Position numbers and translations under genes: made by a program. A DNA stretch of 64,000 nt from a virus (Duplodnaviria; Heunggongvirae; Uroviricota; Caudoviricetes), in the IMG/VR virus record IMGVR_UViG_3300028591_000077; one strand, written 5' to 3'. Below the pieces are notes generated by a model that saw nothing but the letters and a program-made list of their open reading frames with translations, searched no databases and was not told the origin of the DNA. Position 1 is the stretch's first letter; every line of letters starts with the position of its first letter. Positions 6,901 to 56,724 of this stretch are shown here, piece after piece.

Positions 6901-7545
6901 AACCCAGATAAGATGAGAAATCTTCCAAGATATTTAGGTGATGATGCAACCGGTAAGAAAGCAAATCCTAAGTCATTTGACAAGCTCTATGAAGACTGCG
7001 GCGCATATTTGGGTTGCAGAACCAGAGAGGCTTTTGATAAGATCTTCCCTAAGAAAGCGGTTATCTTATCTGCCTTCACTGGAAGAGTCGCACAAGCTGA
7101 ACGTCAATGCTTAAACGCTAGAATTCAAGGCGGTGCCGCTTCACTTACCAAATTGGCGATGGTTAATATCTTTAACGATGAAGAGCTTAGAAGACTTCAA
7201 GCAAAATTAATCATTACCGTTCACGATGAAGTCTTAGTCGAATGTCCAGCATTATATGCGGATAAGGTCGAGAAGAGACTTCCACAAATCATGATTGATA
7301 CAGCAAAGCCATTCATCAACGTTCCAATGTCTTGTGACCCTTATAACGTTTCAAGATGGTATTGCGATGAAGCCGCTGTTTCCGTCAGAGAAGAATTCAA
7401 AAAATTCGAAGCAGGAAACAAAGATAAAGGCATTGCTCCAATGACACGTGAAGAAGCATTAGAGGCAACATTTAAAAAGCACCCAGAATTACCTGAATCT
7501 TGCATTATAAGCACAATTGAGCAAGGCTCAGACCTAGAGTTTTAA
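3946..7545 (+). CDS. polA: Family A DNA polymerase with 3'-5' exonuclease and large insertions
   Basis: ExoI IDTET, ExoII HNGKFD, ExoIII YAATD; TGRYSS, NIQNIP, motif A DYSAQEPR, motif B RAKAKTMLLAILYG, NARIQG, motif C VHDE. Confidence 0.95.
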   Translation: MSGLFGDEFEITLKKQDINGLIKKANNVKEEEDNVKKILKSSVVSLDERLAIIKQRVLETLGKQTKNVLVIKDRETLHNYISDCIKAGRIAIDTETNNSLDPVTCKLMGPCFYAPGLKQAYVPLNHVDPKTHKRLEWQLTEKDIREELTRILCFRKALRGGWIPDYEGQSYNEWYQLHVGSQQYPLADYKIIMHNGKFDYEVLKCTCGIEVSPDWDTIIGARILDENEFADAKTSLKYIYTKYIDPSQAKYDIEELFENIQYSLVDPEIFALYAATDSMMTDKVYLLEIERFDNPMYAAHTRKAGDITLTIPGLKWVFENIEMPIVTVTAEMELAGVCVDTVFGERLKYKYNEQLTALDNKISAQMNILKPLIKYWKLLPLANRKTKVFQPKKSKLSISKIEEKYPYLDLETGKRYKWGKAKALQIGDEISLSSPTQLAILFYDIFKCPAPSTKKPRGTGEDELIKLSENLKEYADIVNKSLRVIEKDLRASRDEKNDDALAEGEEDETVAVQDEKKSYEEEAMSLFYDETEQIGDEEETKEVADTGISVQITNNMSNQEIKTLIEELTPFYIAGAQALQAMCQAIIDRRGIMKLITTYIDVIPDLSKHWPDGRIRFHLNSMGTDTGRYSSGGKLKFFENDKPVVVSGINIQNIPSHNKEIRMLFKAQVFKNVINVEEGVGFDVPEIAEVETNNGFKFCKDLTPNDKLIFSEGEIADIQVIKYNEALKTYTLYSNNAGKLKTQTRYRIIGSDYSAQEPRLTAYMSQDPEMIKAYNEGKDLYAVIAQAMFKNKYEDNLEFYPEGTEIELDGKKIVCGKKTHLHKAGKERRAKAKTMLLAILYGMSPKTAGIRMGYSAKEAQKAGQELMDGFFMKFKSVRALMDDSKNDLIEKGYVEDWAGRERRLPDIEYQKTGHLYEARLKDGDRFNPFLECEDNIEAFPEERFWNGVIAAYADLSAKDHEKRGEAYRKGEMSNKTYEWLARVALNPDKMRNLPRYLGDDATGKKANPKSFDKLYEDCGAYLGCRTREAFDKIFPKKAVILSAFTGRVAQAERQCLNARIQGGAASLTKLAMVNIFNDEELRRLQAKLIITVHDEVLVECPALYADKVEKRLPQIMIDTAKPFINVPMSCDPYNVSRWYCDEAAVSVREEFKKFEAGNKDKGIAPMTREEALEATFKKHPELPESCIISTIEQGSDLEF

Positions 7546-7586: not shown

Positions 7587-8726
7587 ATGATAATCAAAAC
7601 AAAGCAATTCCAAGAAGTAGCGAACAAAATTCTTTTAGCCGCGGGTTTAGATGAAAAAGCGGCTAACTTAGAAATCGTTGTAAAAAACAGCTTCTTATAT
7701 CTAAACGTCACCAATAAAGAATATTATGTTTCAATTAAGTTCGAATTAGAGCAACCTGAAGAATTCAGAGCTGTTGTAGATGCATCTTTATTCTTAAACC
7801 TTATCTCTGGCTTAACTGTCGAAGAGTTCGAATTAACAATTAAAGACGGTTCCGTAAACGTGTCAGCCGGCAAGAGCAACTATAAGCTTGCTATGATTTA
7901 TGACAACGACAAATTAATGGAATTACCTATTATTTTCGTCAAAGAACCTACTGTTGAGATGAATATTAGCAATGATATTCTTACAAGTATTCTCAACGTC
8001 AACAGCAAAGAGCTCTTAAAAGTCAAGAAGGTTGATGTAAACGAACTTCAACGTTTATATTATATTGATGAAACTGGTTGTTTTACATTTACAACCGGTG
8101 CATGCTTAAACTCTTTTAAATTAGAAAAGCCTATCAAACTCTTATTAAATGATAGAATCGTCAAATTATTCAAGTTATTCGATAGCGATGTCCATTTCTT
8201 ATTCGGACATGAAGAATTGCCAGACGGCAATACACGTTCTAAAGCTTCCTTCCAAGCCGATAACGTCTATATGGCCGCTATCTTGACTTGCGATGATTTG
8301 TTATTAAGCAAGGTCCAAGGTCCATGCAACGCAACTAAGAGATTTATTTCAGACGCATATCAAAACCATATCGTCGTGTCATCAAATGCTCTTTCTGCTG
8401 CAATCGCCAGACTTCTCTTATTCACTAAAAACAGCGTTGAGAAAGCCAATATGTCGTATATTCCAGCTTTCTTCACGATTACGGTAGATGATATCATCAT
8501 TACTGATAGACAAGGAAATATGGAATCCGTTGCTGTTGAAAACGATACAGTCGTTCCTGAAGAAACATATTCTATGAAGCTTAACTTATTCGACTTAAAG
8601 CTTGCGTTAGACTCTTGCAAGAACGACCATATCACAATCAACTGTGGCAATCACAGATCAATTGTTATTAACCATGGCACAATCAGCAACCTTATTCCTG
8701 AAATCGGGGATAAGAAAAATGGCTAA
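7587..8726 (+). CDS. dnaN: Sliding clamp (DNA Pol III beta-like)
   Basis: 379 aa, beta-clamp-like size and repeating pattern; follows polymerase; clamp loader subunits nearby. Confidence 0.7.
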   Translation: MIIKTKQFQEVANKILLAAGLDEKAANLEIVVKNSFLYLNVTNKEYYVSIKFELEQPEEFRAVVDASLFLNLISGLTVEEFELTIKDGSVNVSAGKSNYKLAMIYDNDKLMELPIIFVKEPTVEMNISNDILTSILNVNSKELLKVKKVDVNELQRLYYIDETGCFTFTTGACLNSFKLEKPIKLLLNDRIVKLFKLFDSDVHFLFGHEELPDGNTRSKASFQADNVYMAAILTCDDLLLSKVQGPCNATKRFISDAYQNHIVVSSNALSAAIARLLLFTKNSVEKANMSYIPAFFTITVDDIIITDRQGNMESVAVENDTVVPEETYSMKLNLFDLKLALDSCKNDHITINCGNHRSIVINHGTISNLIPEIGDKKNG

Positions 8727-30096: not shown

Positions 30097-30116
30097 TTAA
30101 AGGGAGGCAAATTAAT

Positions 30117-31262: not shown

Positions 31263-31264
31263 TA

Positions 31265-33187: not shown

Positions 33188-33201
33188 GGAGATACTAAAA
33201 G

Positions 33202-33813
33202 ATGAAAGTAACATTAAAAGAATCCAAAGAACAACTCCCATTATCATTCTTAACAGACTTTGTTAGCAGAGGCTGGGAAAATATTGGAATGTTAAAGCAA
33301 GAAATTGCTGCTATCAAGGAAGAATTCTCAGGAACTAAAAAAGTTGAAGAACTACTTCAAAATTTAGTTGATGCTTATCTTATTTGCGTTGGACAATTAG
33401 AACTCCATATGCAAAACAAAGATTATTTGGATTTTCCAGATGAAGCTAAGGAAGAAAGCTTAAAAGAAGACTTATCATTAAAAGAATCCGAAGAAGAAAC
33501 TGAAGATGATGAAAAAATCGAAGCTGAAGAAGTTTTAGATGTCTTAAAAGATAAGATTGACATTCATGGTGAAGATGACATGATCACCATTGCTGAAAAA
33601 GGTCAATTAGAAAATCCAGAAGCTCCAAAAATTGAAACAGAAGTAACAGAAGATGAATTTGATGCTTTAGCTCAAGAATTTCATGATGCAGAAGCTGAAG
33701 AAAAAAATGATCCAAAAGACGAAATTAAAGAAGACTTTGAATACTTCTGTGACTTCGATGAGCCAACTGGTGAAGCATTAACTGATGCCGATATATACCC
33801 AGAAGATAAATAA
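33202..33813 (+). CDS. Acidic hypothetical protein
   Basis: ORF with RBS; terminator at 33831-33862 follows. Confidence 0.75.
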   Translation: MKVTLKESKEQLPLSFLTDFVSRGWENIGMLKQEIAAIKEEFSGTKKVEELLQNLVDAYLICVGQLELHMQNKDYLDFPDEAKEESLKEDLSLKESEEETEDDEKIEAEEVLDVLKDKIDIHGEDDMITIAEKGQLENPEAPKIETEVTEDEFDALAQEFHDAEAEEKNDPKDEIKEDFEYFCDFDEPTGEALTDADIYPEDK

Positions 33814-33976
33814 TTAACTAAAAATAAGCAAAAAGGCAAATTGGAAAACAATTTGTCTTTTTATATTTGCTAAATTATATGATAATCAGCATGGACTTAT
33901 CCTTTCACCATGCTGGTTATCCATTACTAGAAAATTTTATTATTTTATATTTTTATATAAATAAGGAGAGATATAC

Positions 33977-35929
33977 ATGGGCAAAATTAGTTTTGAAGAA
34001 ATCATGGCAAAAGCTGATGAGCTTGATGCTATTCTTGATAGCTTTGATGAAAATTTAGAAGAAGCCAAGAAAAAGAAGAAAAAGCCATATGACTCTGCTA
34101 CTATTACAACCGGTGATATCGGTTATAATATTAGTCAATTTAACAAACACATGGGAACAGATTTTCCTGGAAATGACAATAGTAACCCAAGCACAGAAGA
34201 AGCAAAAGCTGCTGCACATGCTGCAGAAGCAGCTGCCCAAGATTTAGGTGGTGGAGAAGCTTCTGGGGCCAGTGATGGAGCTGCTACTAGCGGAGAAGCT
34301 GGCGCAAGCGCTAGTGAGGCTGGAGCAGGCGATGGAGGAGCCTCAGGAGGTATGGGAGAATCTTTAGAAGAAGACCTCAACTTAATGGAAGGCGCTATTC
34401 TTGACGAAGAAAGAATCTTAATTCCTAAGCTTGTAAAAAATGGCGTTGCCGAGGCAAATGCTTATATTGATTTACCTGATGGCGTCCATGTTTTGTCAAG
34501 AGAACAAGTTAGCGAAGCCCTTACAAAGTTAAGCCCAGCAGAAGAATTTATTATTGGCTATATCACTCCTGTATATTTCTACAAAGAGCTTTGGGATTTA
34601 TTCAATGTTGTAAAATGCACTGAATTTATTGGCTATACAGGCATGGATTATCGTCAAGTCAGAGACGAGACAAGAAATGACTATGACTCAGACAGAGACA
34701 CAAGACTTGATACCGCACGAGCACAAATCAGCAATCCAGAAGATATTGAAAATAAATTTGTTAAGAGAATTGACCACCAAGATCCAAAAGCTTACGGTCA
34801 AATTAATAAAACAGTTGTTCAAAAACAAATTGACAAAGTAGATTACGATAGTATTCTATACTATCCAGCTCCAGGCAAAAAGCCAAAAGTTTGCTATTAT
34901 ATTGATATTCATGATGGAAAGGGTTATACAAAAGTTTCACGTGCTCTATTTGAAAAAACAGTAGTTGCATACGTTGAAAGCGCTCTTCAATCAGGCAAAT
35001 TAGTTGGTTCAAACCGTTGGAATATTGACAAGCTAAAAGCAAAGGTCGCAAATACCTTAGCTGTTGATAATGCAACGACTGGAAAAGATGCTCTTGATGC
35101 TCAAAAACTTTGGGAACCAACTGCAACTAATGTTGCTGATCAAAAAGTTTTTAAGCCACAAGTAAGAGCTTTATATACTAATCAAGTTTATTACCTATCA
35201 ACTCCTTATGAAACCCTTGGCACTCCATTAAACCCAAGTTTATTGGAAGACGTTGAGTTAGATGAAGCTAAGCGTGAGACAAGACGTTATTACATTAGAC
35301 CACAAGGAATCTTCTGCGCTAATAAATCAGAAGTCATTAGGGGCTTGATTTCAGTCGGTGATGAAAACTGTTGCGTCTATTCTTTAAAAAGCTTAGGTGA
35401 TAACAGAGATGTTCATAAGCTAACAAACAAAGATATCATCTATTATTATGATGATGGTATCTTATATGATAAAAACCATGTTAAAGTTATGGATTATGAC
35501 TTATACATTAAGCATGAAGAGGAACGTAAAAAATTCCCAGGCGATGTCGATAATGTATCTGGCGCTGCATTTATTGATGAATATGATGACAGAATTACAG
35601 ACGTTACCGGTCCAGGTATTGAAGAAGGTCTTGGGAAATCTATTCTTGAATTCTGGGATATTTTTGATGAAAAGCCTGCAGATCAAGCTCCTTTAGCTGA
35701 AGAATTAAATGAATCAGCTGAACAAGACGACCCATTTGATGTCTTTACTGAAGAGCTTCATGAAGAAGCTGAGACACATGTCTGCTGCATTTGTGGCGAT
35801 GAATTTGTTGGTTATGGAAATAACCCAGAGCCTGTAAAGAGCCATGATGACGGTGTTTGCTGCGATGCTTGCAATATTAAATTTGTGCTTCCAGCAAGAC
35901 TTGCTAACTTTAATAAAAACATTAAATAA
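33977..35929 (+). CDS. Hypothetical multidomain protein with C-terminal Cys-rich Zn finger
   Basis: CCICG..FVGYGNNP....CCDACN; acidic spacers. Confidence 0.75.
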   Translation: MGKISFEEIMAKADELDAILDSFDENLEEAKKKKKKPYDSATITTGDIGYNISQFNKHMGTDFPGNDNSNPSTEEAKAAAHAAEAAAQDLGGGEASGASDGAATSGEAGASASEAGAGDGGASGGMGESLEEDLNLMEGAILDEERILIPKLVKNGVAEANAYIDLPDGVHVLSREQVSEALTKLSPAEEFIIGYITPVYFYKELWDLFNVVKCTEFIGYTGMDYRQVRDETRNDYDSDRDTRLDTARAQISNPEDIENKFVKRIDHQDPKAYGQINKTVVQKQIDKVDYDSILYYPAPGKKPKVCYYIDIHDGKGYTKVSRALFEKTVVAYVESALQSGKLVGSNRWNIDKLKAKVANTLAVDNATTGKDALDAQKLWEPTATNVADQKVFKPQVRALYTNQVYYLSTPYETLGTPLNPSLLEDVELDEAKRETRRYYIRPQGIFCANKSEVIRGLISVGDENCCVYSLKSLGDNRDVHKLTNKDIIYYYDDGILYDKNHVKVMDYDLYIKHEEERKKFPGDVDNVSGAAFIDEYDDRITDVTGPGIEEGLGKSILEFWDIFDEKPADQAPLAEELNESAEQDDPFDVFTEELHEEAETHVCCICGDEFVGYGNNPEPVKSHDDGVCCDACNIKFVLPARLANFNKNIK

Positions 35930-35947
35930 TCAGGGAGGTGTAAAATA

Positions 35948-37645
35948 ATGGAAATTGTAGAAACGTTACCTTCTTGGAGCTACAGACAGTGGCAAGTAGC
36001 AGAAGAAAATATGCGTGAGTTTAACGCTGGCACAAGAAAAGAAAACGTCAAGGCATGCGGTTATGATAAATTAGAGGCTTATTATAAAATCTGCTGCGAT
36101 AAAAACTTAGATATCGCTAGACAAAAAATAGAAGATGAGCTTGCAAGACGTGACCATAATAATGGGACAACAATCGGCCCTACTATTATTGCTAAATATA
36201 AAAAAGTAGCTAATCCAACTACTCAATCAACTTCACAACCAACGCCACAATCAACGCAATCAACAAATACAACATCTACTAATACTTCTTCGACAGGTGA
36301 CTATGACACTATTATTAGTATGCTTCGAGCAAATCCATCAAAATTTAATAGAGATGAAGCAGTTCAAGTAAATAATAATAGAAATAAACCAGAAGCAGTT
36401 TTAGAGTATGCAAAGTATAAACCAAGCACTCAACAAGCATTAGTTATTTTAATGTTATTAGCAGTTGCTATGCGTGCTAACAATGTTGCCAATGCCATCG
36501 TTGAAGAGCTTAAAACAAGATTTAGCTGGCCTATTTCTGAAATTCAAAGAGTTGCTGGAACCTTGATGAAAGATTCTAGTATTATGGCCGCTATTATGGC
36601 TTCTGTTAAAGGCTTAACAGAAGACCTTAATGAAGAAGTTGATGAGGAAGGCTTAATGGAAACTGTTGAAAAACATGATACATTAAATCCTAAATTATTC
36701 GATGGTGCTCATTTAAAGGATGAAGTTCGCGAAAAAATATTAGAAATTGTAGATAAATTTACAGAAGACCTTGAAGAAGACGGTATTAGAATTATTATCA
36801 AAGATATTGTCTTAATCGGTTCTAACGTAAGTTATAACTATACAAAAGATAGTGACTTAGATATTCATATTATTGCTGATACCTCTTCATTAGATTGTCC
36901 ACACAACTTATATCCATTGTTATATAGTGCTTATAGAAGTCTATTTAATAAGAAATTTGATATTAATTTCTATGGAATTCCAGTTGAATTATTTGTTGAA
37001 GCTGGCGATGTTCCAACTGTAAGCAATGGTATTTATTCAGTAAAAAATAATGACTGGGTTAAAGTTCCAGATATTAACACAATTCCAGAATATAACAAGA
37101 CTGCTCTTGAGACAAGCGTTGATAAATGGAAAGCAGAAGCTGGACAGATCATCTCTGATATTAAAACTGGCGTCTTAGAAGGCGAAGCCGCTCATGATGC
37201 TATTATTGGCTATGTAGAAAGAATTTATGAACTTCGTAAAATCGGCTTATTGACAACCGGTGAATATGGCACTGAAAATCTTACATTTAAAGAAATCCGC
37301 AATGCTGGACTTCTTGATGAATTAAAAGATTTAAAGAATGAGGTCACAGCCAAAAAGCTTTCATTAGAAGCTATGCAAGAAAGACTTGAAGAGCGTCAAA
37401 GATATGACTATGCACAAATTCTTTCAAGAGAAGCACATACACAAGTTATCTTACAATCAAATGGCTACTTCTTTATTCATAACGTTAAAGAACAAGACGT
37501 TGAGCCAATCTTGGCAAAACTAAGATACTTAGATTTCGTAGAATATGTAAGACGTGGTGCTGCTGGAAAATGGGATTTCTCTCATGTATATCCAGGAGCG
37601 CTTCCAACAAGATACTATACTATCGAAGGCAAAATAAAAGAATAA
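35948..37645 (+). CDS. Protein with Pol-beta-superfamily nucleotidyltransferase domain
   Basis: LIGSNVSYNYTKDSDLDIH (GS..DxD) and PVELFV. Confidence 0.8.
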   Translation: MEIVETLPSWSYRQWQVAEENMREFNAGTRKENVKACGYDKLEAYYKICCDKNLDIARQKIEDELARRDHNNGTTIGPTIIAKYKKVANPTTQSTSQPTPQSTQSTNTTSTNTSSTGDYDTIISMLRANPSKFNRDEAVQVNNNRNKPEAVLEYAKYKPSTQQALVILMLLAVAMRANNVANAIVEELKTRFSWPISEIQRVAGTLMKDSSIMAAIMASVKGLTEDLNEEVDEEGLMETVEKHDTLNPKLFDGAHLKDEVREKILEIVDKFTEDLEEDGIRIIIKDIVLIGSNVSYNYTKDSDLDIHIIADTSSLDCPHNLYPLLYSAYRSLFNKKFDINFYGIPVELFVEAGDVPTVSNGIYSVKNNDWVKVPDINTIPEYNKTALETSVDKWKAEAGQIISDIKTGVLEGEAAHDAIIGYVERIYELRKIGLLTTGEYGTENLTFKEIRNAGLLDELKDLKNEVTAKKLSLEAMQERLEERQRYDYAQILSREAHTQVILQSNGYFFIHNVKEQDVEPILAKLRYLDFVEYVRRGAAGKWDFSHVYPGALPTRYYTIEGKIKE

Positions 37646-38668: not shown

Positions 38669-40726
38669 ATGGATACAAATAAAATTAACATAGAAGCGTT
38701 TAATAAATTATCCCCAGAAGAAAAAGCATACGCTCTTAAGGTATTACAAGAATTGTCCGAAACCGGACAATCAGATACCCTAGATGACTTAAAGTATTCT
38801 GACTTTGAGGAAATACCTGTAGACATCGACACATTCTTAGATGATGATGATTATTTCGGAAAAAGCATCTGAATGGCCGATGAATATTCTGGTGAGCGTA
38901 AATGCACACTCTTCCCATATTGACGCGAAACATTACATAAATTATTCCCAGACAACCTAACGACTGCATACAATACGTTGATATTGACAGGCGCTATCGG
39001 TCTTGGTAAAACAGAAGTCGCTGTACTTGCAATGTCTTACCTCTTATACAGAATGCTCTGTCTAAAAGACCCATATGCTTATTATGGAATGATGCCTAAC
39101 GATAAGATATCATTCTCGATGTTAAACATCACATTAGATGCCGCCCAAGGTGTTGGCTGGGATAAAATGCAGCAACATATACAAGCATCCCCATGGTTCA
39201 TGACACATGGTAATATGAATGCTAGTAGAACAAATCCAACATGACAGCCTCCAAAAGGCATTGAGCTTATCTTCGGTTCTAATAACCGTCACGTCGTTGG
39301 TCGTGCGTTGTTCTCAAACCTTACCGATGAAGTTAACTTCGGAATCGGTTCCGACGTAGAGAAGAAAAAAGAAAAGCAAAAGAAAATGATTGCTCAAATC
39401 GATGCTCGTATGAAATCCCGTTTCATGAAGGGAACATACTTGCCAACATTGAACATCATTATCTCATCAAAAGATACAGAACAATCATTCTTAGACAGTT
39501 ATATAAATACTAAAAAACAAAACGAATCAAAGACTACATTAATTGTCGATGAGCCACAATGGGTAGTCAGAAACGATAAAGGTTCTCCAAATGACCCAGG
39601 AAGTTTCTATGTAGCAGTAGGAAACAAGGTATTGGCACATGAGCTATTACCAGTTGATTTTCCTGAATCAGAAGCTGATAAATATAGAGAAAAAGGCTAT
39701 ACTTTAATTAGAGTACCACCTGGATTCAGAGAGGACTTTGAAACCAACTTAGATCAATCCTTAATGGATATTGCCGGTATCTCATCATCCAGCATGACGA
39801 AGTATATATCTGGCGTAAGATTAAATCAAGCAAAAGTTGATACTTACAAAAACCCATTTACGAAGGATGTCATTGAGGTAGGCAATAATCCAGAAGATAA
39901 ATTACAATATGCCAACTTCTTCGATTTGTCACAAATAAGCCCAAATGATATGTCAAAACCGATGTTCATTCATCTTGACTTATCAACGACGGGTGACAAA
40001 ACTGGTATTGCTGGTGTATGGATTACTGGAAAACGTCCTACACAAGGAGATGAAGATGCTTCAAAAGAACTGCAATTCAAACTTGCATTCTCAGTATCAA
40101 TAAAAGCTCCAAAAGGCTATCAAATTAGCTTTGAAAAAACAAAAACATTCATCTACTGGCTACGAGACCGTGGATTTGCAATTAAAGGCGTTTCATCCGA
40201 TACCTTTGATAAATCTATTGTCCAAGAGCTAGGCGGTCATGGATTCAAAACTCAATTCTTATCTGTTGATAGAGTTGACCTAAAAACAAGAGTCTGTCTT
40301 CCATATGCCTATCTAAAATCAACGATTTACGAAAGACATATAGAGATTTATAGAAAATGTGACCAATTAACAGATGAATTGATTGGCCTTGAAAGAATGT
40401 CAAACGGTAAAATAGACCATACTGCCGATGGCATAAACTCAAAAGACCAGGCTGACGCGGTATGTGGCGCATTATATCTAGCAAGTCAGTATGCAGACCA
40501 ATTTGCATATGATTATGGGGAAAGCTTAGATGCTGCGTTAGAAGTAAATACAACTTATTCCGAAAATTATAAACGAAGACAAATGATTACTGACTTCGAA
40601 CAAGAATTAACAAGAGCTTACGCTAATGCTGGAAAAGACGACGAAGACAATGGATTCGGAGTTGCAGCACATAACGTAACTCAACAAGATTACCAAGATA
40701 TTATCGATGGTATAATTATAGTATAA
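38669..40726 (+). CDS. Terminase large subunit (code 4, 3 TGA)
   Basis: LFPYW, TGAIGLGKT Walker A, TDEVNF, IISS, HLDLS, KIDH..SKDQADA; TGA at 38870, 38921, 39242. Confidence 0.92.
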
Positions 40727-45314: not shown

Positions 45315-46640
45315 ATGAGACAAAATTTACTTGAAACTTATTCAAGACAATTAAAAGTCGCAGAAGCTTATGTCGCAAAGAACTTTGACGGCAGAACAGT
45401 TTCTAGCAACGCCAAACTTACTACTGCTGTCTTATTAGACAACACAAACAGATGGATGACAGAAGCTCTTAACACTGTCGCAACTGAGAGATCAGACCTC
45501 GGTGCTTGGAAGAAATTCTGCTTAAACCTCACAAACATCGCTGTTCCTAGCTTAATCGCTAACGATTTAGTCATCGTTCACCCAATGACTTCTTACAGCG
45601 GCTCAGTTGCATACTTAAAGTATGTTTCTAAGACTGATAAGGGTGGAATCGAAAAAGGCCACGAATTCAACAGTGTCTTCGGACTTGGTGAATCTTCAGA
45701 AGCCAGAACTAACTTCACTTCACAAGTTATCGTTGAAGAAGTTGGTTCAAGCGGAAAATTAGCTTTAACTCCTATCGCAAACGGCAGATTCGTTAAAGAA
45801 GACGAAGATGTTGCTGCTGGTAAGGGCTATGATGCTAAAGTCATCCACGCTGATGGCAAAGTCGAATTCTTCAAAGTCGCTGACTTAGTTTACGGCGCAG
45901 GTGACAAAGTTGCTTACGTTTCAGAAGAATTCCAAATGGAAAGAGTTCCTGCAAAGGATATCCCAACCATTGGTCCAAAAATGGAACACATCGCCTTAGT
46001 TGCAGAACCAAGACGTATCGCTGTCCGTTACGACCAAATCACAGCCTTCCAAGCAAAGACTGACTACGGCTTCTCACTCGATAAACAAATCGCTGAACAA
46101 GCTTGTGGTGAATTAGCTTACGAAATCGATACTGAAATCGTTCGTATGTTAGCTGATGGCGCTGGTGAAGCTCTTCCAGAATTAACCTGGTCAAAGACCC
46201 TTCCACACGGCGTTAGCAAATTTGAGCACTACAATGGCTTCTTAGAAGTTATTGAAAAAGCTCGTGCAATCATCTACAAGAGAACCAAGAAATTCCATCC
46301 TAACTACATGGTAATCAACGCTGATGTCTTACCAGTCATCAAGTTCGTCAATGGTTACACTGGAGTTAAGAATCCTAAGATGAATGGTCCTTACAAAGTT
46401 GGTGAAATCGACTCATTATCAGTCTATGTTTCCCCAGAATTAGGTGAAGGCGAATTCTTCTTCGGCTTAAACGGTTCCGATATGATGAGCTCTGCTGGTG
46501 TCTACGCACCTTACATGGCTATCGTTCCAACCCAATTACTTGGTACACCAGACGGTGGTTTAGCACAAGGCTTCAGCACTTGGTACGCAAAAGCATTACT
46601 CAACAAGAACCTTCTTGTTGCTGGTAAGATTGTTGACTAA
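45315..46640 (+). CDS. Major capsid protein (gp23-like)
   Basis: LIANDLVIVHPMT, ELAYEID.EI, AGVYAPY, GFSTWYA; strong codon bias; followed by a UUCG terminator. Confidence 0.92.
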   Translation: MRQNLLETYSRQLKVAEAYVAKNFDGRTVSSNAKLTTAVLLDNTNRWMTEALNTVATERSDLGAWKKFCLNLTNIAVPSLIANDLVIVHPMTSYSGSVAYLKYVSKTDKGGIEKGHEFNSVFGLGESSEARTNFTSQVIVEEVGSSGKLALTPIANGRFVKEDEDVAAGKGYDAKVIHADGKVEFFKVADLVYGAGDKVAYVSEEFQMERVPAKDIPTIGPKMEHIALVAEPRRIAVRYDQITAFQAKTDYGFSLDKQIAEQACGELAYEIDTEIVRMLADGAGEALPELTWSKTLPHGVSKFEHYNGFLEVIEKARAIIYKRTKKFHPNYMVINADVLPVIKFVNGYTGVKNPKMNGPYKVGEIDSLSVYVSPELGEGEFFFGLNGSDMMSSAGVYAPYMAIVPTQLLGTPDGGLAQGFSTWYAKALLNKNLLVAGKIVD

Positions 46641-46759: not shown

Positions 46760-47794
46760 ATGAATTTAATAGCAAAGGAATTTTCAAGATACTCTAATTA
46801 CATAGAGCATAATAAGTTTAAAAATAAGGTATTTCTAATAACAGGAGCAAAAGGCTATTTGGCCAGCTCTTTAATTAGATTTTTATTATACCTAAATAAG
46901 ACTTATAATTTAAACTTATTTATTTATGCTACAACTCGAAATCCAGATAATATACCTAATTATGCTGATGAATTTATAAAATATATTAGTTTTGATACTT
47001 TTGAATCTTATAATTATGTAAGCAAAATAGACTTTGTAATACATACAGCAAATCCAACGTCAAGACTTGAATTTATCAATAATCCACTTGGAACTTTTGA
47101 TATTATAAATAATGGAACAAGACGTGTGCTTGAATTCTCAAAAAATCATAATATTAAATCACTATTATATTTGTCCTCAGTGGAAGTCTACGGGAGTCCA
47201 AAAACTACTAAAATGGTAAAAGAATCTGATTATTTTGCTTTGGACCCAAATGATTTGAGAAACTGCTACCCACTTGGTAAAAAAGTCGCAGAATACTTAT
47301 GCAATACTTATTATAAACAATTTAATCTACCAGTTAATATTGTAAGACCATCATCAGTTCAAGGCTTATTCCAACCTTATACTGAGGATAGAATTTTTAA
47401 TCAGATTCTTAGATGTATTATTGAGCATAAAGACTTTATATTCAAAACTAAAGGTGAGACTGCTAAAACATTAATTTATACAATGGATGCCATTACGGGC
47501 ATGCTTACTATATTGACTTCTGGAAAATATGGTGAAACTTATAATCTTACAGATAATAAGACTTTCTTTATGATGAAAGATATTGTTAAAATGATTTTTG
47601 AACATTTTAATACGGGTTTACAAGTAAAATTTGATTTAGAAGATGATACCAAAACAGGATATATTGCACCGCTTTCATATAATCTTTCAACTGAAAAATT
47701 AGAAAGCCTTGGCTGGAAGCCACAGACTGACTTATACCATATCTATGAAATTGATTTAAGGAGGTTTAATTATGAAAAATCTAGCAATAATTAA
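46760..47794 (+). CDS. NAD-dependent epimerase/reductase (extended SDR)
   Basis: ITGAKGYLA, YLSSVEVYG, YPLGK (YxxxK). Confidence 0.9.
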   Translation: MNLIAKEFSRYSNYIEHNKFKNKVFLITGAKGYLASSLIRFLLYLNKTYNLNLFIYATTRNPDNIPNYADEFIKYISFDTFESYNYVSKIDFVIHTANPTSRLEFINNPLGTFDIINNGTRRVLEFSKNHNIKSLLYLSSVEVYGSPKTTKMVKESDYFALDPNDLRNCYPLGKKVAEYLCNTYYKQFNLPVNIVRPSSVQGLFQPYTEDRIFNQILRCIIEHKDFIFKTKGETAKTLIYTMDAITGMLTILTSGKYGETYNLTDNKTFFMMKDIVKMIFEHFNTGLQVKFDLEDDTKTGYIAPLSYNLSTEKLESLGWKPQTDLYHIYEIDLRRFNYEKSSNN

Positions 47795-48494
47795 AATCGC
47801 CGGAAAGGGAACAAGAGTTCACACTGACATTCCAAAACAATTTGTAGAAGTTCATGGTAAACCAATATTTATTTATACTTTAGAAGCTTTTGAGCAATCT
47901 AATTTAACTGATGCTATTTCAGTAGTAACATCAAAAGAGTGACTTGATTTTGTAAAAGAAAATTGTAAAAAATTTAACATTACAAAAGCAAAGTTCTTCT
48001 GCTTGGGTGATGAAAAATATGGAAATGGTAGCACATTCAATGGTTATAAAGAAGCATTAAATAATGGATATTTTCCTGACTATATAATTTCTCATGATGG
48101 TGTCAGAGCTTTAATTACTCCAGAAGATATTGATGGCTGCATTAAAAAGTGTGTCGGCTCAGATAATGGAATTAGCCAAATGGCTAAGGAGCTAACTGGT
48201 TCAGTATTATTCAAAAATGATCATTGGAATGTTATTAATAGAAATGAAGTATTAGAACTTGCAACACCAATTGTGCTAAAGAACAGAATTTTTGATAGAC
48301 TCTATACTTACTATCAAATAGCTACTGATGAACAAAAAGAAAAATGGTTTGGGCTAGATACTATGTTTATGGAAGAATTTGCTCATTGCATTACTCCATA
48401 TGTCAGTGATAAACTAAACTTTAAAATTACTACTGATAATGACTTAAAATTCTTTAAAGACTTAATTGAAGTAAGAGGTAACCATTATGAGTAA
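47772..48494 (+). CDS. IspD/TarI-like cytidylyltransferase (code 4)
   Basis: AGKGTR...PKQF..GKPI, SHDGVR, NFKITT..DL; TGA 47940 read as Trp. Confidence 0.88.
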
Positions 48495-49647
48495 ATATAT
48501 GATTTTTTATGACAGAGGTTATAGAGCCCAAGATAATGCTGAGCATCTTTGTAGATGGGTTATGAAAAATCACCCGGAAATTAAAACAGGTTATATTTTA
48601 AATAGTAATTCATATGACTGAAAAAGACTTGAAAAAGAAGGCTTTCATTTAATAGACGGTTTATGCAAAGTAGTAACACATAGAGAATTACTTAAATGTG
48701 ATTATGCTTGCTCTTCTATATTTAATGAAGGAATCTGGCTAGATTTTTCAGGCTGTCATTGTAAACGCATCTTTTTAAATCATGGGCTATTCTTAGTACC
48801 TATTAACTATATTAAAGCTGAATGTAACAATGTTGATTTATTTATTGCTACTAATAAAATTGAGTACTTTAATCTATTAGACCCATTCCATAAATTAACG
48901 CCTGAACAAGTAGCCCTTTGTGGCCAGCCACGTCAAGATAATTTAGTTAGACAACAATTAGCCCCGCATAAAGAAAATACTATCTTAATTCAATTCTGAC
49001 AAAGACCAGGTGATTGGTGTAAAAATGATAATAAAAAGTTTTTAGAATCAATATTTTATAAAAAAACTTGTGAGTTATTAACTAATAAAAAATTACTTTA
49101 TCTTTGTAAAAAGAATGACTTAAAATTAGTATTTAAAATGCATCCAATTCAATATGACTGACTAAAATACTATAAAAAATATGAATCTGACTTTGTTGAA
49201 ATAAGTGATATTACAAAACCATTTGAGCCTGAATTTATTAAAAGTAAGTTTATAATAACAGATATTAGTTCGAATGCTTATGAAATGGCTAAGATAAATA
49301 AGCCTTGTATTTATTTTGAACCTGATGCAAAAGACCTATTTTCTTGAAGAGCACAAAGAAATGGTAAGATAGAATTTGATCTTGATCACAACAGCATTGG
49401 TCCCGTAATTTATGACTCAGTAGATAAGCTAGTCGATGAAATTGAAACATTAATACACAATAATTATAAGCTTGCACAAATATATCTTGATAGACGTAAT
49501 AGTCAACTGGCTTTTTTGAATAACATGGATAACTGTAGTCGTTGTTTTAATGCAATATTAAATGTTAATAAATCAAGAACAGCTGAAAAAACAGCTGAAG
49601 AAGAAGCTAAAAAAGCTGCCGCTGAAGAGCATTATCTATATTTTTAA
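48487..49647 (+). CDS. TagF/TagB-family CDP-alditol phosphotransferase (code 4, 4 TGA; absent from ORF track)
   Basis: DNAEHL, FLNHG, GQPRQD, KMHP, ITDISS; TGA at 48619, 48997, 49159, 49345; ends EEHYLYF. Confidence 0.85.
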
Positions 49648-49660
49648 AGGAGATAACGCT

Positions 49661-50362
49661 ATGTTACAATTTATGCAAATATATGGAAATTGCACTGCTG
49701 TTCATTGTCTTGGTCTAAATCGCATTAAAGGTCCTGTTGATAATGTTCAAACGAAAAATTATAAAGTAATTGAGCTACTACTAACAAATAAATATTTTGA
49801 TTATATAAAAAATGCTCAATTTGAACAAACAAGTAGACCTGCTGGTTTTAGTGGTGACTCAAATATTGCCTACTCAACACCAATAGTTAGAATAGTCCAT
49901 AATAATCCGCTAACTGATAAATATTTAAGTAATCTAAAAGTAAGATGTAAAAATTTTAATAATTTTATAAAAAACTTAGATGATACTAAATTTTTAATTT
50001 ATGCTATAAATATTTATGATATAAAAGAAGATCATACTCTTCGAGGAAATAACTTAATTACAAATATAGAATATCTTAAAAAAGTAAGATTACTTGACAA
50101 AGTTATTTTTATAGGTTCACGCGGCAATAGCTGAAGCAATTTCTGGTCAAATAGCCTTGAACCAATTATAAAAAAATATAATTTAAAATATATAGAAATG
50201 ACTGGTATTAAAGCAATGAAAGATGCTACACCAGAATATTTTGAAAAATTATATAAGCAATTTTATACTAAAGCTGAAGCTATAATAAAAAACAAAGCTA
50301 ACAAAAAACCAAAAAATAAAGAAACTAAAAAAGAAGAACAAACCTATTATTTATACTTCTAG
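49661..50362 (+). CDS. Hypothetical protein, DUF1796-like N-terminus (code 4)
   Basis: YGNCTAVHCLG..RIKGPVD; TGA 50132; ends QTYYLYF. Confidence 0.6.
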
Positions 50363-50373
50363 GAGGCATAATT

Positions 50374-51162
50374 ATGAAAATATGTTTCGGAATACCAAGC
50401 TGGCTACCAGATAAAGAACCTGATAGAACACAGCGTAGAGAAAGAATCAATAGATTATTTAAACAACTCAATGATTTTTGGCCAGACATTGATATTTTGG
50501 TTATTGCCCAAAATTGGCAAGATTTTAAGCCGATAGAGACACGAAATAAACAAGTAATAAAAGAATATAAGCCATTAGGAATTCTGCTCGCCAGAAAGAC
50601 TTTAAGAGAAGAATTCTTAAAATTGAATTATGATTATATTATTATGTTTGACGATGATGCAATAATTCAATGTGATAACAATCATGCACATATTGATTTT
50701 ATTAATGAAATCGTTAAGCATCCGCAAGGTTTTTGCTTTATTCATGGTAAAAACAGCAAGTATCATCCATATATTGGTGCTCAACTAAATCTTTGTGCAA
50801 TCTCAAAATTTATTTATGAACAAGAACAAATGGTAGACATTGACCCACAGAAAGACGAAGGTTATGAAGACAGCATATTCGCCTGCCTGCTACATCATAA
50901 ATATGGCAAATATGAGTTTATGCCACCAGCAACCATAAGACCTATACAGTGGATGAATAGAAAAGAACAAATAGCATCTACTTGATCTGATGATAAAAAT
51001 AATGGCCATTGGGCTGTAATGAATAAAAACACTAATAGAATTCAAGAATATATAGTTACCTATAAAAAATTTCCTGAAAACTATAAGAAAATGATAGAAG
51101 CCTACGAAGAGCCTAACTATGATACAAGCTGAGTGAAAGAAGATACTTATTTATATTTCTAA
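50374..51162 (+). CDS. GT-A fold glycosyltransferase (code 4)
   Basis: GIPSW..., GILLAR, YIIMFDDD, GYED; TGA 50983, 51130; ends EDTYLYF. Confidence 0.75.
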
Positions 51163-51212: not shown

Positions 51213-51998
51213 ATGCAAGAAATATCAAAACATGATATCTTAGCCAATTGGAACAATGAAAATTGGGAAGGTTGGCATTCAGAAAAGTATGTTAAAGCTC
51301 GTGCTAAAAATAAAAACACCGTTCGGGATGATAAATATTTAAGAGAAAATATTATATCAAAGTTTCCTATCACAACTGAAATATTATCATTAAAAGAAAT
51401 TAATGAAAATTGGCATAATGAAGATTGGTGGAAAACCAATATTGGAAATGTCATTAATTTATTTGATAATATGTATGTTAAGAAAGGAATAAAATCCTGT
51501 AGCGGAATCTATGCGAGCTGGTTAACAAGATTAACGCAGTATGATATAACGAGAATAGCTGAAAAAACTGTAGCAAAAAACAAAGGCTACGACTGAAACG
51601 AAGCTGGGCATTCTTATATTCATACAGGGCATGCGACGCCAGAAGAAGCACAGCCGGACTTTAAAGATAAAGACGGACAAGACATTGAGCTAAAAGTTTG
51701 TGAAAATGAGAATTCAATAGTATATCATTATTTTAAGAAATTAAAAAATAGCTTTGATTATACTAAACAACATGATTTTCACGGAGCGCAAAAAGCTCTA
51801 TTTTTAACAAAAGCTGCTCCACATAAGCTATATGCTATCGATTTAAACTCTATAGACGACCTGGCCTTACAAATAGGCGAAGATATAGAGCTTGATATTA
51901 TTCCAACAAAGAATGGTAAAATCATAAATAAAGATGATTTACCAGCTGTCCCACCTGCTATTTTATTCGGTTTAACGCCAGCATGGGCTAAAAAGTAA
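51213..51998 (+). CDS. Putative PD-(D/E)XK endonuclease (code 4)
   Basis: IAEK...QPDF...DIELK after reading through TGA 51594; own GTATAATATA motif. Confidence 0.55.
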
Positions 51999-52088: not shown

Positions 52089-52811
52089 ATGAAGTTACAA
52101 GAAGTAATCGATGAAATCAAACTTGAATTGACCGGTTCCGTTCTTGAAATGGAAATTGAAGATGCTACTATTAAACAAATCGTAAACAAAGTTCTCAGAG
52201 AGCTTGAAAGATTCTGGGACGAGACTACGATGATTACGATTCCATTCGCATCTTGCATCGATTTGTCTGGCAGTGACTTCTATGAACGCGTAAGCTCAAT
52301 TGTGAAAGTATATCGTGTCCAAGGCCTTGGAGAAGGCGGAGACGGCGTAAATGCAATGACTGACCCATTATATATGCAACAATATATGATATTCAGCAAC
52401 GGCGGCACGATGTATAATCTACAAGATTATATCATGAACTATGCATCATGGATTACATTGTCAAAAATCAAAAATACCATTTCAACAGACATGTCATTCA
52501 AAGAAGACCGACACAACAATAAATTATATATTAATAATTATATGTCTTCACCTGGATATGTAACTATCGAATACATCCCTAAATTAAAATCCGTTGAGGA
52601 TATTAAAAGTGATTATTGAATCGATATCCTGGTAAGAATGAGCGTCGCCTTAACAAAGGTTGTGGTTGGTAGAATCAGAACAAGATTCACGCAAGCCGGA
52701 GCCCTTTGGACACAAGATGGCGAAAAAATCCTCGAAGAGGGTAATACAGAACTAAAAGAACTTAGAGAAGTTCTAAGAGCAAATTCCAATCTAGTCTATC
52801 CAATAGATTAG
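52089..52811 (+). CDS. Neck/head-tail adaptor (gp13-like; code 4)
   Basis: IKLELTG..LEMEI, DYW(TGA 52617)I...GRIR..F...DGEKILEEG..E. Confidence 0.75.
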
Positions 52812-52842: not shown

Positions 52843-55800
52843 ATGGAAAAAGAACCTGTTACAAAATTTGATCTTGAAGCCGCTTTTAAAGCTTTGGATG
52901 AACTAGATATTCCCGTAGCTGAAAAAGGTATTGCAGCTAACAGAGTCAATCTAACTGAGACTTTCGCTAATGCTAGAAACAACAAGCTTAAAACCGAAAT
53001 TCTCATTGAAGATTACTATGACTTAAATAGTGAAGAAGATTTAGAGCAAGCCAAGACAGACAGAGAAGATGAAATTGCAAAAGCAAAACTTGCAAGAATC
53101 GAAAAAATCGTTGATTTAGATGCTGAATCACCAGAAGATTTACAACCATCTTATGTTGGTAAAGTAATTATTCAATGTCCACAATGTATGACTTTATTCT
53201 ATAAAGACCCAGCTGATATTGAACCTTCTGAAGATGATGAATCAGTCGTTAACATCAATGAAGTTTGCCAGCACTGTGGCAATGCGTCCGGTTATAATGT
53301 AATCGGTAAGGTTGATGCTGTTTCTGAAGATGAGACTGCAAATTATGATGAAGCAGAAACCGAAGAAGCTCCAGTTGAAGAAGATGAATTAAGCCTTGAC
53401 TTCGAAGAACCAACAGAAGAAGTCGATGCCGAAGGAACTGGCGAAGCAGAAACTACTCTTGAAGAACCAACAGAAGAGACCGAAGATGCATTAAATCTTG
53501 ACTTCACTGATACTGAAGAAGAGGAAGAAAAAGAAGAGGAAGAAAAGAAAGAAGAATCCTTAAACCATTCTAAAGTTGAAAGAGAAGCTGAAGAAGGTAG
53601 TGAACTTTTCACAGACAATAAATCTGATAATCTAACACTTAATGAAGATACTGCAGATGAAAGCTTAAACAATTCAGAAGCTCAAAAAGAAGCTGAAAAA
53701 ACTTCTGAACTTAAAACAGAAAATGAGTCTGAAAATTTAACTCTTAATGAAGAGGGCAATGCAAAATGGAAAGCCCTTTCCAACAAACCAAGAGATTTAT
53801 TATCAAGAATCAAAGATGACCCAAATTATAAAGCCACTGATAAATATGTTTTCTATGGAACAGATGCAGACGGCAAAGTCCTTGCAGCTGTAAACTATGA
53901 GCATACAAGCGATAAAATCAGTGATTTAAAAGCTGAAAGAAATAAAGTCTTTGATAAGGATGAAAAGATTGAAACAGTCTATGTCTCAAGATTCTTCCAT
54001 AACGAAAAAGAAAATAAAGATGAAGAAGTAGAAGTTGATTCATATATGATTTCTCGTAATAAAGTCGATGAATCCTTAGAATTAACAGAAGCTTCCGTCA
54101 AAGACTTAGATGCAAAATTAAAAGCACACAATGACTATATTAATTATCTTAAAAAGATGATTTCACAAGAAGAAGCTGCTTTAAAATCCACAACAAACGA
54201 AGAAGTTAAAGCCGCAATTCAAAGACGTCTTGATGCATTCAACGATGACTTAAACAAAGCACTTCCAGAAGCCGTTAAAAACGATTTAGCTGCTGATGAG
54301 CTTCCAACTCCAGAAGAAACTTCTGTTGAAGAAATTGAAGCTACAGAAGAAACAACAGAATCTGTAAATAAGTCTGAAAATACTGCCGAAATTGCAAAAG
54401 ACGAATTACCAGATGCAAAGACATTACATGAAGATGTAATTACTGTTAAGGTTGATACTGCTGATGGTGGTACTCCAATTGTTACTGTTGAACAAGAGCC
54501 TTCTGCTCCAATTGAAGAGCCTATTGCAGCACCTGCTTGCGTTGGCCCAGAATGCGAAGCGCCTGTCACAGAGCCTTGCGTAGGTCCAGAATGCGAAGTC
54601 GTTCCACCTGCAGTTGCTAATATCCCAGCAGTTGAAGAACCAGTCGTAACTGATGATGTTGAAGCTGGAATGACTGCAGACGCAAATTCTGCAGTTGATG
54701 AATTAGCCGCTGAATTTGGCATCGATAGCGATGTTGCTGTTGTTGAGCCAGGTGAGGCTGCTGAAGAAACAGCTGAAGTTGAAGAGACTAAAGAAGATGA
54801 TGACGATGACGATGATGATGATGATGACAAAGGCGGTTCTGGTGAAGCTCCTGTAGATGAAGGAATTTTATCCGCTGCTGGCAGCGTTGTTAATGGCGTT
54901 GTCGATGGCGTCAAAAATCTTTTAGCAAGCGATGAAGCTGAAAAAAAGGATTTAGAAGAATGCTCTAAAGTAACTGAAGATACTGCTGAAGATGCTCTTA
55001 TGCATGAATTAAAAACTCCAGTTTCTGAAGACGAAGTTAGAGCTATGATGTCCGATTTAAGAACTGAAGACATTAATATTACAAATAATGACTCTCCAGC
55101 GAGAGTTGATAATAGAACAGTTGACAATACAACAGAAGCTCCTACAACCGAAGAAAAACCTGTTGAAGAAGGAATTCTTGGTGCAGTCGGTGATGTAGTT
55201 GGCGGTGTTGTTGACGGTGTTGAAAATTTATTAGCCAGTGATGAAGCTGAAAAGAAAAGCATGGATGAATGCGCTAAAACTGAAGAAGGCTTAGGCTTAT
55301 TCGGTATTGGTGACGTCAATGTTAACTTAGATGCCTCTGGACAAAATAATGCTGTTGGTGTTGGCGGTGGTGAAGGTAAGACCGAAGAATTAGAAAAAGA
55401 AGGCTTACTTCCAGATGGACTCCCAACTCCTCCAGTAAAAGTTCCTGGATTAACCGAAGATGAAGAAGCTAAAGAAGACTTACAAGAAGGTCAAAAAATT
55501 GATGAAATCTTTGGTTGGTCAAAAAAAGAAAAAGAAGAAAAAGTAAATAAATTAGCTGACTCTTTATTTAAAGAATATACTATTCGTCTTTGGGACAAAA
55601 AGAGTGAGACACAAGATTGTCGTACATTTAAAGTTGCCTCAGATAGAGCCAGCATAGAAAGTACTTATAGCAACGATTATCATAAAGATACACTTGCAGA
55701 AGCAAGAGTACTAGCTGCTAATCTATCAAAAGGTGCTAAAAATCCTATTGCCGATATCTATGGTGGTCATGTTGAAGCTAATAAATTTACAAATTTAATT

Positions 55801-56724
55801 TTAACATATTTCAAAGGTAATGAACTTACTGAAAAAGATTTAAAGACTCCAGGTGATAGTAATGGTTGGTCAGGTGAAAAATCAAATACTGCATTTGCTA
55901 TTACAGCAGATGGTGACTTTGATAAAGAAGGTGGTAAAAATATTGTAGTTAGCGCCGGCAATCGTATTAATCTTGAAGCAGAATTAGCAAACCGTGCTAA
56001 TGATGAAGAAAAAGAAAAAGCTAAAAAAGATGATGAAGAGAGAACCAAACAAAAGAATGAATTAAGTCTTAGTGAAACTCTTAAAAAATGTAATTATACT
56101 GGTAAATGGATTCTAAAGGACAAGAGCAATAATCCATTAGAAGTGAATAGCGAATTTGCAAGAGAAAAAGTAGATGAAATGCTTGCTCAAGCAAAAACAG
56201 CAAGTGCTTATATGACAGTATATATCTGTGCAGAACCAGATTGGAAACTTATTAAAGTATTCAAAGGCACTGCTGAAAAAGAAGCTGGTGCCAAAGGATA
56301 TGACGCATTTGTTACTGCATTCCCAATTACAGAATCTATTGCAAAAAATACTGCAGATCTAAGCCTTTTCGAAGATTTAGACGAAGAAACAGTAGTCAAA
56401 CATATTTCTAGCTCATTAACAAAAGTATATGAAAATGTTAATAAATTTGAAATTAAAGAATGCTACTTAGAAAATAACAAATTTATAATCGAAGGCAATA
56501 TTGTATTTAAATCTGCAAAAGTAAAACCTACAAAATATGTCTTTACAGAAGCAGTTATAAACGATGAACATAAACTCGTTTTAACCGGCATTAATGAAAG
56601 CCTTACCAATGATGGTGTATTTATATTAACATGTGCTATCGATGGCGCAAAACTAACCGCAGAAAATCTTGCTTATAAGTATACTGTGAATAACACATTA
56701 GTTGAAGGCTATACAAACAAGTAA
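52843..56724 (+). CDS. Very large acidic protein with internal repeats (probable internal head protein)
   Basis: 1293 aa, Glu/Asp-rich, CxxC pair, repeats, many L-x-E motifs. Confidence 0.75.
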   Translation: MEKEPVTKFDLEAAFKALDELDIPVAEKGIAANRVNLTETFANARNNKLKTEILIEDYYDLNSEEDLEQAKTDREDEIAKAKLARIEKIVDLDAESPEDLQPSYVGKVIIQCPQCMTLFYKDPADIEPSEDDESVVNINEVCQHCGNASGYNVIGKVDAVSEDETANYDEAETEEAPVEEDELSLDFEEPTEEVDAEGTGEAETTLEEPTEETEDALNLDFTDTEEEEEKEEEEKKEESLNHSKVEREAEEGSELFTDNKSDNLTLNEDTADESLNNSEAQKEAEKTSELKTENESENLTLNEEGNAKWKALSNKPRDLLSRIKDDPNYKATDKYVFYGTDADGKVLAAVNYEHTSDKISDLKAERNKVFDKDEKIETVYVSRFFHNEKENKDEEVEVDSYMISRNKVDESLELTEASVKDLDAKLKAHNDYINYLKKMISQEEAALKSTTNEEVKAAIQRRLDAFNDDLNKALPEAVKNDLAADELPTPEETSVEEIEATEETTESVNKSENTAEIAKDELPDAKTLHEDVITVKVDTADGGTPIVTVEQEPSAPIEEPIAAPACVGPECEAPVTEPCVGPECEVVPPAVANIPAVEEPVVTDDVEAGMTADANSAVDELAAEFGIDSDVAVVEPGEAAEETAEVEETKEDDDDDDDDDDDKGGSGEAPVDEGILSAAGSVVNGVVDGVKNLLASDEAEKKDLEECSKVTEDTAEDALMHELKTPVSEDEVRAMMSDLRTEDINITNNDSPARVDNRTVDNTTEAPTTEEKPVEEGILGAVGDVVGGVVDGVENLLASDEAEKKSMDECAKTEEGLGLFGIGDVNVNLDASGQNNAVGVGGGEGKTEELEKEGLLPDGLPTPPVKVPGLTEDEEAKEDLQEGQKIDEIFGWSKKEKEEKVNKLADSLFKEYTIRLWDKKSETQDCRTFKVASDRASIESTYSNDYHKDTLAEARVLAANLSKGAKNPIADIYGGHVEANKFTNLILTYFKGNELTEKDLKTPGDSNGWSGEKSNTAFAITADGDFDKEGGKNIVVSAGNRINLEAELANRANDEEKEKAKKDDEERTKQKNELSLSETLKKCNYTGKWILKDKSNNPLEVNSEFAREKVDEMLAQAKTASAYMTVYICAEPDWKLIKVFKGTAEKEAGAKGYDAFVTAFPITESIAKNTADLSLFEDLDEETVVKHISSSLTKVYENVNKFEIKECYLENNKFIIEGNIVFKSAKVKPTKYVFTEAVINDEHKLVLTGINESLTNDGVFILTCAIDGAKLTAENLAYKYTVNNTLVEGYTNK

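Follow-up and report, generated by a model that had tools for sequence, protein, structure and literature searches.

Glycosylation of phage virions is documented in few systems. Portable terminal peptides that address unrelated proteins to a shell of the HK97 fold are represented by the cargo-loading peptides of encapsulins and the capsid-targeting sequence of phage T4, both of which lead to loading inside the shell. The bacterial beta-clamp is bound through the motif Q-L-x-L-x-F, and in the consensus of clamp motifs a Gln stands at a distance of five or six residues from the C-terminus. For mycobacteriophage Che8 and its relatives, the major capsid protein (MCP) is the predicted substrate of phage glycosyltransferases, according to the relevant parts of two reports (PMC11256854, PMC10877033). 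In the present study, the 64,000-nucleotide DNA of a tailed phage (IMG/VR record IMGVR_UViG_3300028591_000077; this whole stretch is referred to as the window) was analysed, in which three consecutive enzyme genes located between the capsid and neck genes end in the same tetrapeptide, YLYF. As in the mycobacteriophages, phage enzymes are predicted to act on the MCP, but the cassettes described here differ by the shared terminal tag, the location in the head module, the phospho-alditol, Stealth, pyruvyl and acyl transferases, the recoding and the internal Ser as the predicted site. Unlike the encapsulin and T4 targeting peptides, the tag has an unrelated sequence and the modification is predicted on the outer surface. 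Capsid glycosylation and terminal docking peptides are already known; a swappable tag on glycan enzymes linked to the capsid, together with a co-varying capsid Ser, was not found among the listed records of the open-access literature.

The window is a part of a T4-like myophage genome, with genes of the gp23 capsid, portal, sheath, PolA and beta-clamp, and the phage belongs with a family of gut phages that are large and uncultured. The enzyme cassette and its borders comprise the following features.

45315..46640, + strand: MCP, T4 gp23-like (Pfam Gp23, E 1e-24; T4 gp23 match), predicted acceptor and candidate docking partner
45747..45749, + strand: triplet for Ser145 of the MCP, where the variable insertion region begins; predicted site of O-glycosylation (Ser/cassette co-occurrence)
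46760..47794, + strand: SDR epimerase/dehydratase, likely donor synthesis, untagged (PF01370, E 6e-27)
47772..48494, + strand: IspD/TarI-like cytidylyltransferase, likely CDP-alditol donor synthesis, untagged (PF01128; NF001183 below cut-off)
48487..49647, + strand: TagF/TarL-like alditol-phosphate transferase with four in-frame TGA, tagged (PF04464, E 2e-14)
49633..49647, + strand: YLYF-stop tag 1, end of the TagF-like gene
49661..50362, + strand: middle gene, weakly SGNH-like fold with conserved Cys11/His80, possible acyltransferase, tagged (alignment; model)
50348..50362, + strand: YLYF-stop tag 2, end of the middle gene
50374..51162, + strand: GT-A fold glycosyltransferase with R..DDD..ED, tagged (model; fold comparison)
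51148..51162, + strand: YLYF-stop tag 3, end of the GT-A gene
51213..51998, + strand: Trp-rich gene with neither tag nor family match (homologue is the only slot gene of a relative that has no cassette)
52089..52811, + strand: neck/head-tail adaptor, downstream boundary of the cassette slot (phrog_211, E 2e-10)

An earlier note on this DNA had reported the three tails in code 4, and their coordinates and codons were reproduced. The YLYF end is confined to these genes, which are 3 of the 64 curated open reading frames (ORFs) of the window, and tabulation of the C-termini agreed with the note in that the SDR and IspD-like genes end without it. Two details required correction: the start of the middle gene, given as 49562, is most likely 49661 by alignment, and the label "DUF1796-like" is unverified, as the protein had no Pfam match at E 0.01. 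The chance of YLYF at a given C-terminus is P = 8e-6, and three neighbours with any identical last four residues would be expected by chance at about 1.5e-8 over 61 triplets. A DNA-level repeat was considered as the origin of the tag and rejected, because every position shows synonymous codon variation and the stop is TAA in some copies and TAG in others; the spread of synonymous codons, seen across 52 tags, bears out the claim that conservation is at the protein level. TGA is read as Trp and not as a stop, since the TGA at 50985, within the GT-A gene, falls on W204, a Trp that hardly varies across the 94 aligned sequences. The standard code hides the tag, as had been supposed, and a 203-residue code-11 truncation of the GT-A protein is present in the database (P0051). 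The tag is nevertheless not bound to code 4, because tagged genes of locus L270 contain no TGA. The tail linker is flexible and Lys/Glu-rich (18% Lys). Residues 214-233 of the middle-protein model, which form its tail, have a predicted local distance difference test (pLDDT) value below 50, and the tail is of low confidence in the GT-A model too.

The enzymes belong to families typical of teichoic acid and capsule pathways. The GT-A protein was modelled with a pLDDT of 94, and the model points to a general GT-A fold: the nearest folds include TarS/TarP, and the match with TarS (Z 14.6, root-mean-square deviation 3.5, 207 aligned residues) is tied with other GT2-like enzymes. Residues R74, D93-95 and E165-D166 are invariant and make up a motif common to general GT2 enzymes. 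The resemblance of the middle protein to SGNH hydrolases is weak (VIA, Z 7.2, root-mean-square deviation 4.1, 147 aligned residues), and Foldseek gave Ras-like matches only. A PDB sequence search with the GT-A protein gave no match, and no useful cultured homologues of TagF and GT-A were found. Untagged GT-A homologues of distant relatives also lie in head or tail modules.

The loci of relatives were anchored on the neck gene, and enzyme families were taken from family assignment and from BLAST to assigned members. Tabulation of C-termini in the relatives, proposed in the earlier note, revealed that the tag is much wider than the window: [YF]LYF ends 54 distinct cassette proteins, out of 79 of the transferase type, in the capsid-to-neck slot, and none of the nine donor-synthesis enzymes. 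By family, the tag is carried by 22/27 GT-A, 7/7 TagF, 7/7 pyruvyltransferase, 6/10 GT8, 5/6 GT2-Stealth, 1/2 Stealth, 2/5 pyruvyltransferase/GT92-like, 2/2 of another glycosyltransferase, 2/8 of the middle-gene (unknown) and 0/5 GT92 proteins. The full motif is approximately A-D-G-[RK]-[KP]-[NDG]-[TCY]-[YF]-L-Y-F (n=54), where the invariance of L-Y-F follows from the selection used and position -4 is Y in 45 and F in 9 tails. In 5.4 Mb of loci, 56 of the 57 tagged open frames belong to cassette families; the complete 232-kb genome of relative G001 has two tagged ORFs among 247, both in the cassette and none elsewhere. A search for the tag outside the clade with the pattern G-x-x-N-x-YLYF gave 41 viral matches, and the pattern ended long ORFs in 3 of 40 new loci, all of this clade. 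Among 150 listed distant GT8 representatives, three bear the tag. The tag is present in 27 of 69 neck lineages, which requires seven changes on a quick neck tree. Locus L220 has a neck gene 100% identical and a different cassette, in which the tags are kept. The whole cassette of L036 is one tagged GT8, which places the tag partner outside the cassette. A comparison of gene presence and absence with three cassette-less genomes yielded no plausible partner specific to tagged genomes; the sole gene tracking them, small and DNA methyltransferase-like, was judged implausible and rejected.

The enzymes also occur with other tails. The [YF]LYF end is found in 67 of 120 listed GT-A homologues and in 21 of 30 listed TagF homologues, while others of similar identity end in F-T-G-L-[PST]-[DE]-E-[WY]-W-K-x-x-[YF], Y-[IMV]-G-[FL] or other aromatic tails; TagF homologues with other tails are 66-69% identical to the TagF of the window. 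The second tail type is found on TagF, GT8, GT-A and Stealth proteins. Its form F-T-G-L-P-[DE]-E-[WY]-W-K ends Stealth and GT-A enzymes at L125:8886-10810 (G010) and in L437. The second type is carried by two G010 enzymes and by one Stealth enzyme of another genome, both sets upstream of similar tail-fibre-like genes. Since close orthologues in other lineages bear other tails, YLYF is a portable label, and such swapping is the pattern expected of a lineage-specific address label. The identical terminal peptide thus occurs on non-homologous proteins beyond chance, is conserved at the protein level after a disordered linker, and is gained, lost and swapped independently of the enzyme.

The proposal of the earlier note that YLYF is a docking signal is strengthened by the conservation at the protein level, the unrelated folds, the orthologue swapping, the absence from donor enzymes and the disordered linker; the binding itself is a prediction. 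YLYF is very probably a docking tag. As for the partners then suggested, the capsid has gained from late-type codon use and from the co-variation of a capsid serine, and the beta-clamp has lost, as the PolA end does not follow the tag.

The capsid serine is Ser145 of the MCP. In the first scan it was present in 11/11 cassette phages and in 1/20 without a cassette, and none of the other columns among the 5126 structural ones did as well (J 0.95; second-best 0.84). The held-out set consisted of 25 MCP rows, and in the seven with a settled cassette status Ser was found in 3/3 with the cassette and 0/4 without. The pooled counts are 14/14 and 1/24, the best of 446 MCP columns (next 0.76). "Without" means no cassette between capsid and neck, with other positions checked in G005, G006 and G007. 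The MCP nearest to that of the window (92% identical) comes from a phage with neither cassette nor Ser. On a tree built without the Ser145 region the cassette changes six times and Ser seven times. Simple hitchhiking of Ser145 with the cassette seems disfavoured, because columns nearer the cassette track it no better and Ser is kept in both insertion-domain types. Ser145 aligns to the start of the T4 gp23 variable region, which presumably faces outward.

Codon use gives an indication of timing. In seven genomes or fragments summed, TGA/TGG counts for Trp are 87/41 in cassette, 186/196 in structural and 13/226 in replication genes, and 19 of 20 cassette genes contain TGA; for the window alone, the comparison is 8/12 vs 2/36 (p 0.002). 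G010, which is more distant, uses TGA in its replication genes as well. TGA-rich genes are translated after a code switch in the model of Borges et al., as outlined in the preprint (bioRxiv 2021.08.26.457843). Because its codon use is like that of structural genes and unlike that of replication genes, the cassette probably belongs with the morphogenesis genes, although late DNA modification is also compatible with this. The phage glycosyltransferases thus have structural-type expression, as far as timing can be read from codon use. The phages resemble the Jade clade of gut phages, for which sections of the same preprint describe genomes of about 200-240 kb, TGA=Trp mainly in structural genes, and RF1 and TrpRS beside lysis-type genes. 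This likeness rests on the recoding features of relative G001, where TGA recoding in late genes is accompanied by a code-change module of TrpRS and RF1, after which come genes for a peptidase and a CHAP protein (L068:17006-19057); this module is outside the window. ARAGORN found no suppressor tRNA-Trp in G001/G004. The term "glycosyl" is absent from the main text of the Jade preprint.

It is likely that the acceptor is the virion, and it seems somewhat more probable than its opposite that the tag docks the enzymes on the head and that MCP Ser145 is O-glycosylated. After the TGA-to-Trp switch, the nucleotide-activated donors would come from the untagged soluble SDR, IspD-like and TagD enzymes. 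Priming of the capsid serine would fall to a tagged GT-A or GT8, and the tagged TagF, Stealth, GT2, pyruvyl- and acyl-transferases would lengthen or decorate the product to give a glycan of the teichoic-acid or capsule type. Late in infection, on the assembling head, the tag would fit into a pocket of the MCP or of a head-associated protein, and this docking would concentrate the enzymes locally, on a surface that offers hundreds of sites. Exchange of cassettes would change the coat in the manner of a serotype locus. The fuller picture is tentative and falls a little short of an even chance: a modular capsid "serotype" system, in which captured host capsule and teichoic-acid enzymes, a lineage address peptide and a late code switch place a variable phosphoglycan coat on one internal serine. 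It would mean that captured enzymes can be retargeted by a dozen added residues, and it suggests that abundant gut phages vary their surface much as capsules vary. If true, the tag and the serine would be a minimal transferable recipe to direct any glycan enzyme to a capsid. With the peptide and the acceptor residue both specified, and with natural pairs that have or lack the cassette, the way in which enzymes of host glycan pathways reach a capsid becomes directly testable.

A number of observations weigh against docking on the head and glycosylation of Ser145. Ser145 was first spotted by eye in the alignment and then scanned, which makes the first test post hoc, and the cassette status of 18 of the 25 held-out rows could not be settled. 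There are two independent pairs on well-supported branches (same direction 1.9, opposite 0) and six on the best tree; a sign test on two pairs cannot reach significance, and the phylogenetic test was not significant. The MCP gene and the cassette are physically linked, and the cassette-less locus L259 retains Ser. The co-variation of Ser indicates the acceptor and not the binding partner of the tag. Some transferases are untagged, namely all five GT92, 4/10 GT8 and 6/8 of the unknown family. Further points concern DNA as the acceptor. A weak match to TAGT (PF20691), a family of DNA glucosyltransferases, is seen at E<=0.1 for 14 of the 94 GT-A family members, in the N-terminal half only; the best match (E 0.0014, 19.1 bits) is below the curated cut-off of 27.5. 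The family has the GT-A fold with the R..DDD..ED motif, as TAGT does, and the motif is described for DNA-acting GT-As in a portion of bioRxiv 2023.12.21.572611. The TagF homologue of SP-15, a phage that is also the best cultured MCP match (30%), has been proposed for DNA modification (PMC5977210, as far as the pertinent part goes). A homologue of thymidylate synthase (TS) with Asp at the Asn177 position suggests a modified cytosine. Finally, the tag and the PolA end, D-L-E-F in the window phage as the earlier note had it, are both L-x-F, with small residues preceding in both. The features in question are listed below.

7587..8726, + strand: beta-clamp-like processivity factor, the rival partner (phrog_947; TIGR00663 below cut-off)
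7531..7545, + strand: PolA C-terminal D-L-E-F-stop, clamp-motif-like; the end does not follow the tag type
L069:13031-13870 (G001), also L152, L182, L208, L216-L219: TS homologue

These points would be explained if the tag bound the phage beta-clamp and the enzymes hypermodified DNA at the fork, as the T4 alpha-glucosyltransferase does on the clamp gp45, to which it binds (PMC13216743, in its relevant part). Like the peptides of gp45 clients treated there, the tag is a short hydrophobic C-terminus on a flexible linker, is shared by unrelated proteins and ends in L-x-F, which fits the L-x-F or L-F clamp-type end; it differs by aromatics at -2 and -4, the lack of Gln and the absence from replication proteins, and varies while the PolA end is constant. 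Position -6 is N in 18, D in 15 and G in 11 of 54 tags, with no clamp-type Gln, a weak test as the PolA end is often without Gln too. The D-L-x-F end of PolA is unchanged in phages with YLYF, another tail or no cassette; it reads T-G-C-D-L-[ND]-F in a YLYF genome and two other-tail genomes, and the second tag is unlike the PolA end of its own genome, so the tag does not track the polymerase motif across lineages. The cassette codon use is unlike that of replication genes. In all seven clade genomes with a TS match, cassette-bearing or not, Leu143 is kept beside Asp177, a combination that predicts dCMP methylation without a hydroxyl handle according to passages of PMC8670742 and PMC13326640. 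The homologue is thus a predicted dCMP methylase, and the DNA may carry 5-methylcytosine. Tet_JBP and 2OG-FeII_Oxy_3 were each found in 0/5 genomes, and Ser145 is left unexplained. Docking on the clamp is quite unlikely. A neighbouring possibility, DNA modification off the fork with the tag on portal or terminase and decoration before or during packaging, fits the late codon use, the TAGT-like motif and the SP-15 precedent. No base handle was identified for it, judging by the TS residues and the two dioxygenase families in five genomes each; two near-complete genomes have GT-A homologues but no TS family gene, and the best portal/terminase column (J 0.75) is below Ser145. Restriction-site avoidance persists (GTAC 0.28 and GATC 0.36 observed/expected in the window), and tagged phages avoid such sites no less than untagged phages do, G001 least so. 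Modification before or during packaging is very unlikely. The likeness to DNA hypermodification clusters in the accounts of SP-15 (PMC5977210) and of TAGT/JGT-like GT-As (bioRxiv 2023.12.21.572611, PMC13216743) lies in the TagF homologue, the R..DDD..ED GT-A and the Asp177-type TS, but here no hydroxymethylase signature was found in the clade genomes with a TS match, neither dioxygenase family was found in the five genomes searched for each, and the cassette is far from nucleotide genes. A T4-like glucosyl-hmC pathway occurs in the distant relative G016 (L388:1336-3660), where a CMP-hydroxymethylase-like gene adjoins a T4 alpha-glucosyltransferase homologue (E 6e-39), both untagged.

The acceptor may be the virion while the tag binds elsewhere than on the head, namely to a tail, fibre or leucine-rich-repeat decoration protein or to a chaperone or scaffold of the host. 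In two genomes the cassettes of the second tag immediately precede tail-fibre-like genes, leucine-rich-repeat gene arrays adjoin some cassettes, and other glycosyltransferases are found beside tail-like genes; yet the YLYF cassettes keep to the capsid-to-neck slot and the presence/absence comparison supplied no such partner, and this reading is unlikely. It is highly improbable that the basic linker and aromatic end form a membrane anchor for remodelling of lipid-linked wall glycans of the host, a TarP-like receptor masking. The teichoic acid and capsule families, the TarS/TarP folds, the Lys content of the linker and donor enzymes that need no anchor are in keeping with it, but the exact, lineage-specific sequence with a free C-terminus fits a protein pocket better, late timing would leave little use for wall remodelling, and Ser145 is again unaccounted for. 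C-terminal degrons of the Lon/FtsH type are known, and a hydrophobic free C-terminus on a disordered linker could limit the lifetime of the enzymes in the same way. The restriction to transferases, the A-D-G motif and the lineage variants suggest specific docking instead, and a degron, which also says nothing of Ser145, is the least credible explanation, with hardly any probability.

The gene at 51213..51998 is probably separate cargo, because its homologue also occurs in a cassette-less relative. The capsid-to-neck slot is a general insertion hot spot, since in L031, L032, L034 and L046 it also holds DNA methyltransferases, HNH endonucleases and a formate-tetrahydrofolate ligase. Tandem BspA-type leucine-rich-repeat genes, possibly encoding decoration proteins, lie between the capsid gene and the cassette at L035:13038-20718 and L032:14804-16647. 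A phage-encoded tmRNA was detected by ARAGORN in G001 (L070:9640-10045). Conserved tails were also noticed on other proteins of the window: the large terminase (38669-40726) has, in many relatives as well, an acidic linker and then a conserved terminal run of the D-G-hydrophobic type, a possible portal-docking tail, and SSB (2996-3865) has a conserved tail of the R-x-F-x-G-F-x-F type. The regions 28666-37645 and 52843-56724 encode several acidic proteins with repeated L-x-E motifs, an AAA ATPase among them, which resemble internal head proteins processed by the prohead protease.

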